IMG/VR virus record: IMGVR_UViG_3300049988_000286
Location: 1 to 64,000 of that record
Direction: 5' to 3' (one strand)
Source: a virus
Taxonomy: Duplodnaviria; Caudoviricetes
Length of the DNA: 64,000 bases
Shown here: in pieces, positions 26,189 through 52,995 of the stretch
Numbering within the stretch: the stretch's first letter is position 1
Layout of the letters: every line of letters starts with the position of its first letter
Notes under the pieces: generated by a model
Database searches by the model: none
What the model saw: only the letters and a program-made list of their open reading frames with translations
What the model was told of the DNA's origin: nothing
Program-made: the position numbers and the translations under genes

Positions 26189-26929
26189 ATGGAATATACT
26201 TGTTCATGTTGTCTTGAGCCACGCGCTTACTTGACAAAACGGGCGTTACGAAAGCATCAAGCGAAGTATGATCCGACCTATATCTTTGGCGGCGAGAACA
26301 GCAGGAACGCTTGTTTCACTGCTCGGCAGGTAGCTTACGAGGCAAACCCGCGCAGATGTCAAGTATGTCAGGTGGCCTTAGACTTCGATCGATTTCTTCA
26401 TAACAAAAGAATTCGGTTCTGCTCAAGAAGCTGCTCCGCGACGGGGAATAATAATCGCCGTGGAACCGGCTCGGTTAAAGATGTAACATGTCTAAATTGC
26501 GGTGTGGAATTTAGACAGGGACATCGTGATCAATTCTGTTGCAGCAAAACTTGTGCTGGCCAGTATCAACGCCGTGCAACTGTCATAGAATGGCTTGCAG
26601 GTGGCTCGGGTAGTGAGCCCAAAACTGGTGTGCTAAAAAAATCGATCAGATTATATCTGATCGAGGAGGCAGAACGTAGGTGCAGTGGTTGTGGTTGGTC
26701 GGAAGTAAATCCCGTTACAGGTAACATCCCGCTACAGATAGATCACATCGATGGGAATAGTTTGAACAACGCGCAAAGCAATCTTCGAGTGCTTTGTCCT
26801 AATTGCCATAGTTTGACACCTACCTACGGAGCGTTGAACATCGGTAGTGGAAGGCAACACCGAAGAGAGAAACGGCGTTTAACGATATGCGGCAGTATTC
26901 CCCGTGGTTCCGATCCACGAGAAAGATAA
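26189..26929 (+). CDS. HNH homing endonuclease with Zn-finger repeats
   Basis: FCSRSCS and CCSKTC repeats; LQIDHIDGNSLNNAQSNLRVLCPNCH; AT-rich insertion in tRNA array. Confidence 0.9.
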   Translation: MEYTCSCCLEPRAYLTKRALRKHQAKYDPTYIFGGENSRNACFTARQVAYEANPRRCQVCQVALDFDRFLHNKRIRFCSRSCSATGNNNRRGTGSVKDVTCLNCGVEFRQGHRDQFCCSKTCAGQYQRRATVIEWLAGGSGSEPKTGVLKKSIRLYLIEEAERRCSGCGWSEVNPVTGNIPLQIDHIDGNSLNNAQSNLRVLCPNCHSLTPTYGALNIGSGRQHRREKRRLTICGSIPRGSDPRER

Positions 26930-26979
26930 CTGGAATGAGATCACTTCAAATGCAGGTTCGAGTCCTGTCTGTCGCTCCA
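26889..26979 (+). ncRNA. tRNA-like RNA without canonical D and anticodon arms
   Basis: GCGGCAG/CTGTCGC-T-CCA acceptor and GCAGG-TTCGAGT-CCTGT T-arm enclose a non-cloverleaf 56 nt interior. Confidence 0.65.
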
Positions 26980-29282: not shown

Positions 29283-29333
29283 GGTCGGCGTGGCGGTGGT
29301 TTTTCGCCGCGACCGATTTTGAAAGTCTTCCCT

Positions 29334-30599
29334 ATGACCTATGTTTGTGTGATGTTCCCGTATCCGAGTGGGGCCGGGTTGCATCTGGGTCATTATTACA
29401 ACTACGCGGTCATGGACAGTTATTGTCGTTGGCAGCGTCGATCTGGTGAGGTCTTCCAGCCGTTCGGTTACGATGCCTTTGGTCTTCCGGCGGAAAACTA
29501 CGCGAGAGCCATTGGTGGTGATCCGCGTGAGGTTACGGAAGCGAACATTGACAACTTCCGGCGTCAGATCGCGAACATGCGGACAGAGTACCGGGAGTGT
29601 CTTGTCACTTCGCATCCCAGCTATGTCGAGCAAACGCAGTGGTTGTTCACGCGTTTGCTGGAGAATGATCTCGCCTATAAGGCGGAGGCGGAGGTCAACT
29701 GGTGTGAGGCTTGTGGCACCGTCCTCGCGAATGAACAGGCGCAGGAAGGTATCTGTGAGCGTCATGGCACGCCGGTTGAGCGTCGGCGCATGGAACAGTG
29801 GTTCTTCCGCATCACCGCATATCGGGATCGTCTGATTGCTGGTTTGGACAATCTCGACTATCCTGCTGGGACGATCAAGCAGCAGCGGGATTGGTTGGCG
29901 AATCTTCACGACTGGTGCGTGTCGCGTCAGCGGGCTTGGGGGTGTCCCATCCCCATCGAGGGTGAGACGGATACCCTTGATACATTCGTGGACTCATCGT
30001 TCTATTACCTCGCCTATCAGCACCCGGTGAACGGTGAGACGATGGCGAACGATTATCGCCCTGTTGATCTCTATGTCGGTGGTCCCGAGCACGCTTGTCT
30101 GCATCTCATCTACGCCCGGTTCATCAACATGTTCTTGTTCGACATCGGTATCGCGCCGGAGGAGGAGCCATTTAGGCGTGTCATCCATCAGGGGATGATT
30201 ACCGCCAATGGGGCCAAGATCAGCAAACGAAACAATAACGGCGTAGCGATCGAGAATTACGATCCGGCGGAACTGCGCTTCTACCTGATGTTCCTTGGTC
30301 ACTATTTCGATGGTGGAGACTGGTCCGATCAGCATATCGTCGGTGTGACCAAGTTCTTCCGTCGAATGAGGCTATGGTTGTCGCAAACTGGGAATGATGC
30401 GATCGATATCGAGGCCTTGGTTGAGGCTGTTGACCGCAACGTCGCGGCGTTCAAGTTCAACAAGGTGGTTTCATCGTTTATGGAGTTCTACAACCGCAAC
30501 AAGGCGAAGCGCATCGCAGCGAAGGATGCCAGTGAGATTGCTGGGCTCTTGGATGTTTTCGCTCCCGGCTGGCGGGCGGAGAGTGATAGAGAGGAGTGA
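29334..30599 (+). CDS. leuS: miniaturised leucyl-tRNA synthetase (no CP1 editing domain, truncated C-terminus)
   Basis: MFPYPSG, HLGH (HIGH), GYDAFGLPAEN, Zn motif CEACGTVLANEQ, QWFFRIT, DWCVSRQRAWG, DTFVDSS, GGPEHACLHL, KISKR (KMSKS); 421 aa. Confidence 0.88.
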   Translation: MTYVCVMFPYPSGAGLHLGHYYNYAVMDSYCRWQRRSGEVFQPFGYDAFGLPAENYARAIGGDPREVTEANIDNFRRQIANMRTEYRECLVTSHPSYVEQTQWLFTRLLENDLAYKAEAEVNWCEACGTVLANEQAQEGICERHGTPVERRRMEQWFFRITAYRDRLIAGLDNLDYPAGTIKQQRDWLANLHDWCVSRQRAWGCPIPIEGETDTLDTFVDSSFYYLAYQHPVNGETMANDYRPVDLYVGGPEHACLHLIYARFINMFLFDIGIAPEEEPFRRVIHQGMITANGAKISKRNNNGVAIENYDPAELRFYLMFLGHYFDGGDWSDQHIVGVTKFFRRMRLWLSQTGNDAIDIEALVEAVDRNVAAFKFNKVVSSFMEFYNRNKAKRIAAKDASEIAGLLDVFAPGWRAESDREE

Positions 30600-30714
30600 A
30601 GGCCCGGTGAACCCGGATCATACGGGCAACCGCGTCGATGTCGTCGCGAGGGCTGGAAACTCACCGGGCCTTCCCGGTTTCTGGACACGATCCCAGAGAT
30701 TGTCAAACAAACGC

Positions 30715-30743
30715 TTGACGCCCGACAGTCTTCCGTGTAGTTG
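30715..30743 (+). promoter_or_regulatory. promoter for ncRNA cluster
   Basis: TTGACG-17-TAGTTG. Confidence 0.6.
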
Positions 30744-30777
30744 ATCATCACCGGGCGGCAACGTCGGGTAGACATAG

Positions 30778-30847
30778 GGCACGAGTGGCGGACGGTGACG
30801 CCCTCGCTCGCAAGGCGGAGATACCGGTTCGATTCCGGTTCGTGTCA
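30778..30847 (+). tRNA. atypical tRNA-like gene, loop TC-GCA-AG
   Basis: GGCACGA/TCGTGTC-A; GGCG/CGCC D-stem; ACCGG-TTCGATT-CCGGT; C33, no CCA. Confidence 0.65.
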
Positions 30848-31112
30848 GTGGGGACGCCCACGCTATGTTATACGCCTACTGCTCTGCGGGTAGGGGAGGA
30901 ATACGCCCGAGCGTGCATTGTAACGTGGGGGAAGCGCGGGGTTAGTTTCGATCTTGTAGATCGTCGAGATATCGGCCACACAGCGCACCCTTCAAGGAAA
31001 GCGGGACAGGCACAAAGTAAGACGGGATCATTCCTGCCGTCTTTGTGGTCGAGACAGATTGGTCAGGTGGAGTAAGCTGCGCAGCGACTGTGAGGGCACT
31101 CACGGGAACGAC

Positions 31113-31211
31113 GCCAGACCATGGATGCGGAGACTGCGGGTTCAATTCCCGCACATGGCTTCGGCCGTGATAGCTCAAAGCAAGAGCACCGCATCCAGAA
31201 GATAGGCTGGG
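31113..31211 (+). ncRNA. YrlA-like Y RNA (circularly permuted tRNA mimic)
   Basis: TGGATGCGG stem, T-arm GCGGG-TTCAATT-CCCGC, acceptor stem closed by TTCG, D-arm GCTC/GAGC, closing CCGCATCCA. Confidence 0.75.
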
Positions 31212-31330
31212 GCACCGGCCTTGGGGTTAGTACAAATGCCAGAGTGCGCGAACGTGGCGAGAACACTCGGAAGTATCAGCGGGCTCTAACCCGATTTGAT
31301 GGTGTTGTGGCGAGCACCACCCCTAAACCT

Positions 31331-31825
31331 CTAGAGCGCCGACCAGTCCGTCTCGAAGAAGATCGTGACATCGACGGCTCTGATCGTCTCCACGCCCCTG
31401 ATCTTCGCTGCTGCGATCCGGTGACCGCCTTCGACGATCCGCCAGCCCGTGCCTTGACGACGCACGAGGATCAGCGGCGGGGTTGTGGTCATCTTCGCGT
31501 ACTGCGCCACTACATTGTCGGAGACGCTGCGGTTGGTGTTGTCGATCTCATCGGGGGCGAGATCAATGATCGACACGGGAAACCAGTTCTCGTCCTCGCT
31601 ACCGTCGCCATCTGGGTGATGGTCGATCTCATATCCGAAGATGAACTGCGAGACGTAGGTTTGGTTGAAGGACATGACCCCATGCTCTTCCATCCAATAG
31701 TCCTCGAAGGCGGGACAATTGACCAACAGCATCGCGAGGATATCTTGCTTCGTCTCGTAGGGGAGGGAATCCACGCCTACCTTCTTGATCAGGTGGGCTT
31801 CCATTAGGTTGATCAATTCACGCAT
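31331..31825 (-). CDS. ParB/Srx-like domain protein with MRxxIxLxE N-terminus
   Basis: PPLILVRR...IVEGGHRIAAAKIRGVETIRA; MRELINLMEA. Confidence 0.7.
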   Translation of the reverse strand: MRELINLMEAHLIKKVGVDSLPYETKQDILAMLLVNCPAFEDYWMEEHGVMSFNQTYVSQFIFGYEIDHHPDGDGSEDENWFPVSIIDLAPDEIDNTNRSVSDNVVAQYAKMTTTPPLILVRRQGTGWRIVEGGHRIAAAKIRGVETIRAVDVTIFFETDWSAL

Positions 31826-32268
31826 TATTCTTCACCTCGACCTTTGAGGAATTCCGCTACCCATTCCTTAACCCGTGGGATGCAACTCTTCACCGACGCT
31901 TTGTGGTCGCGCGATCCCCAGAATGCGGTATCGTGGTGGTGAGCGTTCGTGCCGAGAGCCCTGACATCGCTGGCATCGATGTTGAGGTCGATGATCTCGC
32001 CATCGCGGCGGACGAATTGATGATCGGCGTTGCCCTCTAGACGCCCACCGAATATCGCGCGAGCGAACAGGGAAGTGAACTTGCACGACAGGGAGAGATC
32101 ATCGGGCAGGGTTGCGTTAGGCCCGCCGCGTTCACGGGCGCGTTCCTGCCACTTGCGCAGAACGAAGACGCGTGCGGCTTCGATGTTCTCGCTCGTGGGT
32201 TCGAGAAGACCGTCTTTGTCAGCGCGCTTGAAGTCCCGGCCTTCGACTAGGTTGATCCAGTTTCGCAT
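31825..32268 (-). CDS. late protein, MRNWINLVEG N-terminus
   Basis: CTAAATA-N4-ATG; CKFTSLF...HQFV...IIDL suggests a papain- or transglutaminase-like triad (weak). Confidence 0.65.
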   Translation of the reverse strand: MRNWINLVEGRDFKRADKDGLLEPTSENIEAARVFVLRKWQERARERGGPNATLPDDLSLSCKFTSLFARAIFGGRLEGNADHQFVRRDGEIIDLNIDASDVRALGTNAHHHDTAFWGSRDHKASVKSCIPRVKEWVAEFLKGRGEE

Positions 32269-51623: not shown

Positions 51624-52087
51624 AGGCGCTCCTGACCGAAATCATCTGGTTCGAAGGCCCCGCCCTGATCGCGTGCGATCATCGCTGCGACAAGGCGTGG
51701 GGGATGAATGGTCGCCTCGCGACAATCGGTAGCTATGCTCCTGCACAGATTCAGCTATCCGACGATGATGACGACCACGTTAACCTTGCCGATGCGGAGG
51801 TGGGCATAGCCCCGGAGGACACAGGCTGGTCCGAAGGACCGGACGGCAAGCCGTGGTTCCCGGAACGACACAATCGCTGGTGTGCCCGAGAGTGCGAACG
51901 CTCCTCGATCATCGATCCCGGTGATGCAGTGAAGATAACCGATTATCGGCAGAGGGTGTTCAACATACCGCATCTCCACGATGCCGAGAATGCCGTGATC
52001 GATTTCGGGTTCTCATTCCAGCCGAGCGGTCAAAAACACGCATCATTCATCGAGATAGATGTTGACACCTCGGAGACCATCAAGTAA
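51620..52087 (+). CDS. hypothetical Cys-containing protein
   Basis: CDHRCDKAWGMN...NRWCARECERS. Confidence 0.65.
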   Translation: MKALLTEIIWFEGPALIACDHRCDKAWGMNGRLATIGSYAPAQIQLSDDDDDHVNLADAEVGIAPEDTGWSEGPDGKPWFPERHNRWCARECERSSIIDPGDAVKITDYRQRVFNIPHLHDAENAVIDFGFSFQPSGQKHASFIEIDVDTSETIK

Positions 52088-52103
52088 ACCGATGATGTCT
52101 TGA

Positions 52104-52177
52104 CGCGAGGTGGTGAGATTAGTCCGTCCGGTTGCAAGCCGGGAGTAAGCTGGTGAAAGCCCCGGCCCCCGCGACCA
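52104..52177 (+). tRNA. atypical tRNA with GCA anticodon, weak D-arm
   Basis: CGCGAGG/CCCCGCG-A-CCA; TCCGG-TTGCAAG-CCGGG; T-loop TGAAAGC. Confidence 0.6.
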
Positions 52178-52185
52178 AGACATGT

Positions 52186-52262
52186 AGCGCTGTGTCCAGA
52201 GTGGTTATGGACTCTCCCCGCAAGGGAGAGATACGTGGGTTCGATTCCTCCCAGCGCTGCCA
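52186..52262 (+). tRNA. atypical tRNA with CC-GCA-AG loop
   Basis: AGCGCTG/CAGCGCT-G-CCA; TCCA/TGGA D-stem; TCTCC-CCGCAAG-GGAGA. Confidence 0.7.
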
Positions 52263-52273
52263 ATCTATTTTGA

Positions 52274-52364
52274 GTGTCGGTGGCGGAGTCCGGCCGAACG
52301 CACAAGACTGCAAATCTTGCGAGGGCTTCCCTCCACGCCGGTTCAAATCCGGCCCGATGCTCCA
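52274..52364 (+). tRNA. tRNA-Cys(GCA), long variable arm
   Basis: GTGTCGG/CCGATGC-T-CCA (U73); CAAGA-CTGCAAA-TCTTG; variable hairpin GAGGG-CTTC-CCTC. Confidence 0.85.
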
Positions 52365-52926: not shown

Positions 52927-52995
52927 CGGAACGAACTCTCCTTGCCGTAAGTTAGATGGTCTGCTACCGGGGTAGAAATTTTGCGGGATTCGCGA

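Follow-up and report, generated by a model that had tools for sequence, protein, structure and literature searches.

Megaphage G000 encodes four tRNA-shaped RNAs with a GCA anticodon (t1 to t4), three of which (t1, t2 and t4) combine a YY-GCA-AG anticodon loop with a purine at discriminator position 73. Judged by their sequences, these three RNAs are neither canonical tRNA-Cys nor selC* or allo-tRNAs. We propose, with a probability of approximately 0.45, that t1, t2 and probably t4 are not working tRNAs and instead act as uncharged bait for a host protein that reads GCA.

Phage genome and coding context

G000 is a 499,572-bp phage record, and the window (the whole stretch of DNA analysed here) is its first 64 kb. 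The major capsid protein is nearest to those of Sinorhizobium phage Phosso (66.5%) and the PBECO4/121Q group. The genome carries a permuted tmRNA of the alphaproteobacterial type and a CysRS whose database matches are Sphingomonadaceae-like, which together suggest an alphaproteobacterial host. At least 40 tRNAs are called in G000, SerRS and a LeuRS-like gene are present inside the window, and Cys codons occur in the long ORFs at 8.5 per 1000. There is no sign of an alternative code: long ORFs end at both TAG and TGA (table 11, a crude test).

Several other features of this genome were recorded. A LeuRS-like ORF of only 426 aa (window 29319-30599) lies just 5' of t4, and a PAS-histidine kinase-receiver hybrid gene (window 52981-54570) lies 3' of the t1-t3 trio. 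Outside the window, a Trp-type tRNA (402970-403045, minus strand) has an anticodon loop of 8 nt (CUUCCAAU), and two CUA-anticodon tRNAs (102238-102314 and 106351-106425) have A33 and C33, respectively, though TAG terminates long ORFs. Two CCA-ended RNAs (G000 73547-73628 and window 26889-26979), both missed by ARAGORN, have good acceptor and T arms and rearranged interiors.

Anatomy of the four GCA RNAs

All four RNAs have the GCA anticodon in a 7-nt loop, a 7-bp acceptor stem and a 5-bp T stem (Table 1). Their loops and discriminator bases are exactly those reported in an earlier sequence-only reading of the window, which had also assigned Cys identity to the U73 copy alone: U73 is found in t3, while t1 and t4 have A73 and t2 has G73. 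Cloverleaves with a YY-GCA-AG loop occur exactly three times in G000 (t1, t2 and t4) versus zero times in each of 20 order-2 Markov genomes; their presence is not due to chance.

Table 1. Positions of the RNAs, promoter-like sites and genes discussed in the text (window coordinates unless another record is named).
Feature	Position	Strand	Remarks
Promoter-like site (inferred)	30715..30743	+	TTGACG-17 nt-TAGTTG, read from sequence
t4, tRNA-shaped	30778..30847	+	Loop TC-GCA-AG; A73; G8; first module of a non-coding stretch
YrlA-like permuted tRNA mimic	31111..31216	+	3' of t4, outside the GCA-AG family; Rfam YrlA 33 bits (gathering score 69)
Promoter-like site (inferred)	52062..52090	+	TTGACA-17 nt-TAAACC, read from sequence; 13 nt 5' of t1
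t1, tRNA-shaped	52104..52177	+	Loop TT-GCA-AG at 52132-52138; A73; CCA encoded
t2, tRNA-shaped	52186..52262	+	Loop CC-GCA-AG; G73; A1-U72; CCA; called by ARAGORN and Rfam
t3, genuine tRNA-Cys	52274..52364	+	Loop CT-GCA-AA; U73; G1-C72; long variable arm; called by ARAGORN and Rfam
CysRS, full-length	G000 493212-494084	minus	
U73 CC-GCA-AG tRNA-Cys beside a gene of ~320 aa with PvcA/TyrRS fold	L148:1081-2055	-	Also L179, L241, L077, L222, L763, L767, L768

By sequence, t3 is a genuine tRNA-Cys that is ordinary in its context. It has an Rfam tRNA score of 48.7 bits, and its long arm is common to the Arg, Asn, Met, Gln, Glu and Ile tRNAs of G000 (84-95 nt); megaphage G570 likewise carries a U73 tRNA-Cys with a long arm. 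t2 scores 35 bits and has a U50/C64 mismatch in its T stem. The acceptor stem of t1 is fMet-like. Neither ARAGORN nor Rfam calls t1, because its D arm is short and without GG and its T loop is TGAAAGCC. Upstream of t1, a consensus scanner that demands T at the last -10 position made no call at the promoter-like site.

t4 does not encode CCA, having GTG directly after A73, and its Rfam tRNA score (23.2 bits) is under the gathering score of 29. ARAGORN labels it Ala(CGC) in a shifted register, which we rejected: this register needs a G31-G39 mismatch, there is no G3:U70, and the GCA register pairs better. We also rejected t4 as the 5' tRNA domain of a GOLLD RNA, as a search of 30600-31900 gave no GOLLD match at E values of up to 5, although a highly divergent member could escape it; covariance matches in the interval are to YrlA-like RNA and tRNA only. 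The non-coding stretch at 30745-31325 contains t4, the YrlA-like RNA and additional hairpins. No TROVE/Ro60 protein match was found in the G000 genome.

When isolated anticodon arms were folded, the probability of a 32:38 pair was 0.98 for t1, 0.94 for t2, 0.59 for t4 and 0 for t3. The pairing predicted earlier for the two copies lacking U33 (t2 and t4) is thus borne out, but it is not peculiar to them, as t1 has U33 and pairs too.

A phage family with purine 73

A BLAST search with the G000 locus found an RNA annotated as tRNA-Cys in Phosso, with a CC-GCA-AG loop, A73, the same 50/64 mismatch as t2 and a different acceptor stem. Pattern searches found further members in G406 (A73), G407 (G73), G408 (A73), G570 (A73) and contigs L003, L205 and L248. 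The family includes Phosso and four IMG/VR megaphages besides G000, and the atypical genes are conserved beyond one genome: GCA-AG RNAs recur in other phages. In an alignment of 10 phage RNAs, all ten have GCAAG and a purine at position 73; the search patterns specified the GCA-AG loop, so that its invariance is partly built in, while purine 73 and stem covariation are not. Paired cells make up 67/70 of the acceptor stem, 49/50 of the anticodon stem and 48/50 of the T stem, with many pair types. In most relatives the TTC loop is normal and the T stem is paired.

The three tandem RNAs had been described as having unrelated bodies, which is an overstatement: the anticodon arm of t1 is almost identical to that of the G406 RNA (L322), and t2 resembles the Phosso 'tRNA-Cys'. 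With the loop masked, t2 compared best with GCA-AG RNAs, t1 scored equally against the G406 RNA and an initiator-type Met tRNA, and no clear relative emerged for t4. By these comparisons both t1 and t2 belong to the family; t4 probably does too, attached by loop and discriminator only. In Phosso and G406 the RNA gene stands alone, flanked by a promoter-like sequence 5' and a hairpin 3'.

Because the members share GCAAG and a purine (A or G) at position 73 but differ in the first acceptor pair (A-U, C-G or G-C), selection appears to act on the loop and against U73, and not for one amino-acid identity. The suggestion of convergence on GCA-AG therefore stands with respect to selection on the loop, but the RNAs look like a family rather than unrelated scaffolds that converged. 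The same variation weakens the proposal that these RNAs are missense readers or donors of one specific non-Cys amino acid. If another synthetase charged them, they could place an amino acid other than Cys at UGC/UGU, in the manner of systems that mistranslate deliberately. The acceptor end of t2 is Trp-like (G73, A1-U72, G2-C71), which is part of the bacterial Trp identity set (PMC9976931), GCA and CCA are one base apart, and some phage arrays contain C33 tRNAs that apparently work. Nevertheless, acceptor identity is not conserved across the family, and the TTC loop is missing from t1 and CCA from t4; moreover, missense reading would harm a phage with this frequency of Cys codons and with its own CysRS and true tRNA-Cys. 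We consider it very unlikely.

Functionless decay of tRNA-Cys genes would account for the degenerate D and T loops of t1, for the G8 and missing CCA of t4, and for the lack of synteny among genes flanking these RNAs in relatives. However, the stems covary and the loop is invariant across phages whose CysRS proteins are only ~40% identical, and promoter-like sites are present. Decay, in our judgement an extremely improbable explanation, appears largely refuted for the family by this conservation, though t1 or t4 singly may be a pseudogene.

Searches for further relatives were of limited yield. An exact pattern for the TGAAAG form of t1 had no match in viral contigs, homologues of the downstream 183-aa gene were without these RNAs 5' of them, and a further scan returned tRNA-Ala register matches and non-matches only. 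A broad pattern control was overrun by canonical tRNAs in shifted register and was left out, and nothing here depends on the unpublished genomes G212 and G037. We found no description of the phage class, or of the bacterial GCA-AG class discussed below, in the searchable literature (few subscription papers covered). Phage GCA-AG RNAs are currently labelled tRNA-Cys (Phosso) or Ala (t4), or are missed (t1).

Association with phage CysRS

CysRS is encoded by all five near-complete carriers of these RNAs (G000, Phosso, G406, G407 and G570). No CysRS was found in a sixth carrier, G408, which is 57% complete. Conversely, no purine-73 GCA-AG RNA was found in 15 near-complete large phages without CysRS (Atu_ph07 included), and G575 has CysRS and no such RNA detectable by the search pattern. 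A Fisher test of RNA versus CysRS, calculated with 14 negatives (the final count is 15), gives p = 0.0004; this value is descriptive only, as the test ignores relatedness and ascertainment, the patterns would miss t1-like forms, and the sample is small, biased, made up of related phages and partly found through the RNA itself. A CysRS match was found in only 18 of 50,697 GenBank phage records, of which Phosso alone is clearly a complete jumbo phage.

This association is equally expected if the phage enzyme, with its need for U73 relaxed, charges the purine-73 RNAs with Cys. Such an orthogonal pair would create a pool hidden from host toxins or editing enzymes, for use by the ribosome or by a non-ribosomal transferase. 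The G000 CysRS keeps the catalytic Zn ligands and the equivalents of R427/D436/R439 in an alignment, residues which we take to be those that read the anticodon, and the only GCA tRNA found in G407 (72% complete) has G73. On the other hand, identity among the five phage enzymes is only 38-56%, no distinctive substitution relative to cellular CysRS is common to all of them, and no PvcA-like enzyme was found in G000 (this being the transferase family searched for). CysRS requires U73 in bacteria, eukaryotes and archaea (PMC9976931). Furthermore, a canonical U73 tRNA-Cys is kept in four of the carriers (G000, Phosso, G406 and G570), and for this reason the purine-73 RNAs are unnecessary for reading Cys codons. 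We regard charging by a relaxed CysRS as the strongest alternative to the bait proposal, though a somewhat unlikely one. In a CysRS tree the G000 enzyme is apart from the other four; we make no claim of independent origins.

Loop positions 33 and 38

The sequence-only reading had treated U33 as nearly invariant, but in phage tRNAs it is not. In a set of 2120 viral tRNAs with anticodons other than GCA, C33 is present in 117 (5.5%) and G38 in 70; the combination C32+C33+G38 is found in one. Some viral arrays contain 9-10 C33 tRNAs, among them the sole Asp and Asn genes of that locus, and a TT-GCA-AG loop with U73 is found in ordinary phage tRNA arrays. Since both C33 and G38 occur in apparently working phage tRNAs, neither by itself implies a non-decoding RNA. 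The decisive oddity is purine 73, because U73 and GCA are the major determinants of tRNA-Cys identity (Giege and Eriani 2023, PMC9976931), as the earlier reading had correctly stated.

The arrays with 9-10 C33 genes each (viral contigs L703, L684 and L736) are possibly a means of evading uridine-specific anticodon nucleases.

It could also be argued that GCA is not an anticodon here: GCAA may be a GNRA tetraloop capping an anticodon-less mimic whose elbow or CCA end is the active part, for instance against toxins acting on 3' ends. Consistent with this, GCAA directly closes a 6-bp stem in a distinct class of phage RNAs (L013, L017, L019/L313), folding of the G407 RNA favours a C33-G38 pair (0.73), which t4 could also form (0.32), and C-GCAA-G caps occur in the variable arms of G000 tRNAs. 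However, in t1, t2 and most relatives the arm still has 17 nt, the tRNA register and the 32:38 pair. Other GNRA loops are almost absent from this position (one CC-GTA-AG case was seen), and both the CysRS link and the bacterial U73 version described below point to Cys specificity. A GNRA cap is accordingly a very improbable explanation for the family. The tRNA-shaped RNAs with a GCAA-capped 6-bp anticodon stem in place of a 7-nt loop were also seen in L018, L197 and L235, and the contigs carrying them are mostly of phage or metagenome origin.

A bacterial U73 counterpart

Across all collections, 62 distinct CC-GCA-AG cloverleaves were found, 51 of them with U73. Many bacteria have the U73 form as an additional tRNA-Cys; in one Dialister and one Rhizobium genome, this RNA is an extra gene besides the canonical tRNA-Cys. 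Most genomes of the Dialister family (G001 and G520-G569; example L049) hold both; the second copy has G38 and C or U at position 33, and usually also two T-stem mismatches (pairs 51:63 and 52:62). It looks like a non-proteogenic Cys donor. As U73 is kept, the bacterial GCA-AG RNAs are presumably cysteinylated.

At five loci, the U73 RNA lies 0-51 nt from a member of one unannotated gene family, whose best matches are mostly Patescibacteria where named. In an independent look-up of four such proteins, the RNA was 0-2 nt 5' of the start codon in two. The predicted model of a Patescibacteria-type protein (pLDDT 92.8) matches PvcA isonitrile synthase (Z 16.4, rmsd 4.1, 268 aligned), followed by TyrRS and cyclodipeptide synthases (Z 6-8). 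A likeness in predicted fold does not by itself show function; the joining of the tRNA gene to a PvcA-fold gene suggests a dedicated Cys-tRNA substrate, and we consider the L148-type pair, mostly from Patescibacteria, a candidate Cys-tRNA-dependent enzyme cassette. G000 contains no PvcA-like homologue, and PADLOC gave no real match for the PvcA-like protein or its flanking ORFs.

An extended proposal would unite the two groups: an undescribed bacterial Cys-tRNA class (GCA-AG, U73) would serve an enzyme of PvcA/CDPS fold, or some other non-ribosomal pathway, while megaphages that supply their own CysRS and tRNA-Cys would make unchargeable purine-73 copies of it as RNA inhibitors. We consider this distinctly unlikely in its full form. 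The bacterial class may nonetheless point to an unstudied non-ribosomal use of Cys-tRNA, with the candidate enzyme adjoining.

In Myroides (L034:4500-4910), three CC-GCA-AG U73 RNAs are in tandem, two of which end in CGA, not CCA.

Proposed function

We propose that t3 is a working tRNA-Cys, charged by the host or phage CysRS, and that t1, t2 and probably t4 are mimics of tRNA-Cys. These would be expressed as cloverleaves compatible with the L shape, usually with a CCA end, in which the YY-GCA-AG loop is tightened via the 32:38 pair and the major CysRS determinant U73 is swapped for a purine. They would bind proteins that read the GCA anticodon arm yet remain uncharged, and could serve in a conflict over Cys-tRNA, either as bait or as competitor. 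The partner may be a tRNA-Cys nuclease or modifier, the CysRS of the host, or a host enzyme whose substrate is the bacterial U73 RNA. An uncharged binder of a GCA-reading protein is suggested because the anticodon part and the avoidance of U73 are conserved and acceptor identity is not. EF-Tu reads the T stem, the site of the 50/64 mismatch in t2 and the Phosso RNA.

In favour of a decoy we count the co-occurrence with phage CysRS, the canonical tRNA-Cys present in four carriers, the stand-alone genes of Phosso and G406, the T-arm alterations of t1, t2 and the Phosso RNA, the rarity of C32+C33+G38, the conserved bacterial U73 second copy and the adjacency of the U73 RNA to the PvcA/TyrRS-fold gene. 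Against it, charging of the RNAs by CysRS explains the CysRS link as simply, C33 and G38 each occur in apparently working phage tRNAs, and G575 has CysRS with no such RNA by the search pattern. In addition, one would expect an anticodon-nuclease bait to reproduce the canonical loop, A38 included, and not an altered one. If the RNAs are uncharged bait, phage tRNA genes include decoys besides replacement tRNAs, and Cys-tRNA would be a point of conflict worth a synthetase, a tRNA and mimics to a megaphage. Phosso is a cultured phage on Sinorhizobium meliloti, which makes the ideas about both the decoy and the bacterial class directly testable.

Comparison with known systems

Canonical bacterial tRNA-Cys(GCA) shares with these RNAs the GCA anticodon, the 7/5 cloverleaf and CCA, and t3 also has its U73; t1, t2 and t4 differ by A73 or G73 and by G38, and t2 and t4 also by C33. 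The change of loop (G38, with or without C33) is relative to the CT-GCA-AA of canonical genes from other genomes. The selC* tRNA-Cys and allo-tRNAs are likewise non-canonical tRNA-Cys-related RNAs of bacteria and phages; their acceptor branches are 8/4 or 9/3 (Mukai et al. 2017, PMC5389517), whereas t1-t4 are all 7/5.

The staphylococcal non-proteogenic tRNA-Gly is charged by its cognate synthetase and gives Gly to Fem transferases (Rietmeyer et al. 2021, PMC7826273). Like the phage RNAs, it exists as extra altered copies beside a canonical gene, and in S. aureus it has TG for TT at T-loop positions 54-55 as in t1 (PMC7826273). Alterations of this region in our set are the TGA at the start of the t1 loop and the 50/64 mismatch of t2, most relatives being normal. 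The bacterial U73 GCA-AG RNA looks like the Cys counterpart of this system. By contrast, the purine-73 phage RNAs are without the cognate discriminator, and no PvcA-like transferase was found in G000; on identity elements, these RNAs do not qualify as a non-proteogenic Cys donor.

Anti-defence phage tRNAs are working, cleavage-insensitive replacements (van den Berg et al. 2023, PMC10264068; such tRNAs are also the subject of PMC11464382 and PMC11555353). They resemble the present RNAs in having altered anticodon loops and in coming from phages rich in tRNA, synthetase and RNA-mimic genes. They differ in that t1, t2 and t4 are predicted to be uncharged, bait and not replacement, next to a working tRNA-Cys. 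The bacterial second tRNA-Cys (CC/CT-GCA-AG) has the same loop as the phage RNAs and similar bodies (acceptor GAYGCGG and T stem GTAGG in several members), but it keeps U73, and the Patescibacteria-type loci adjoin a PvcA-fold gene that is absent from G000.

In a Rhizobiales sample, G653, G807 and G837 contain a tRNA-Gly(UCC)-like RNA with the loop CG-UCC-AG (C32, G33, G38), which may be a Gly counterpart of the 32:38-paired arrangement.
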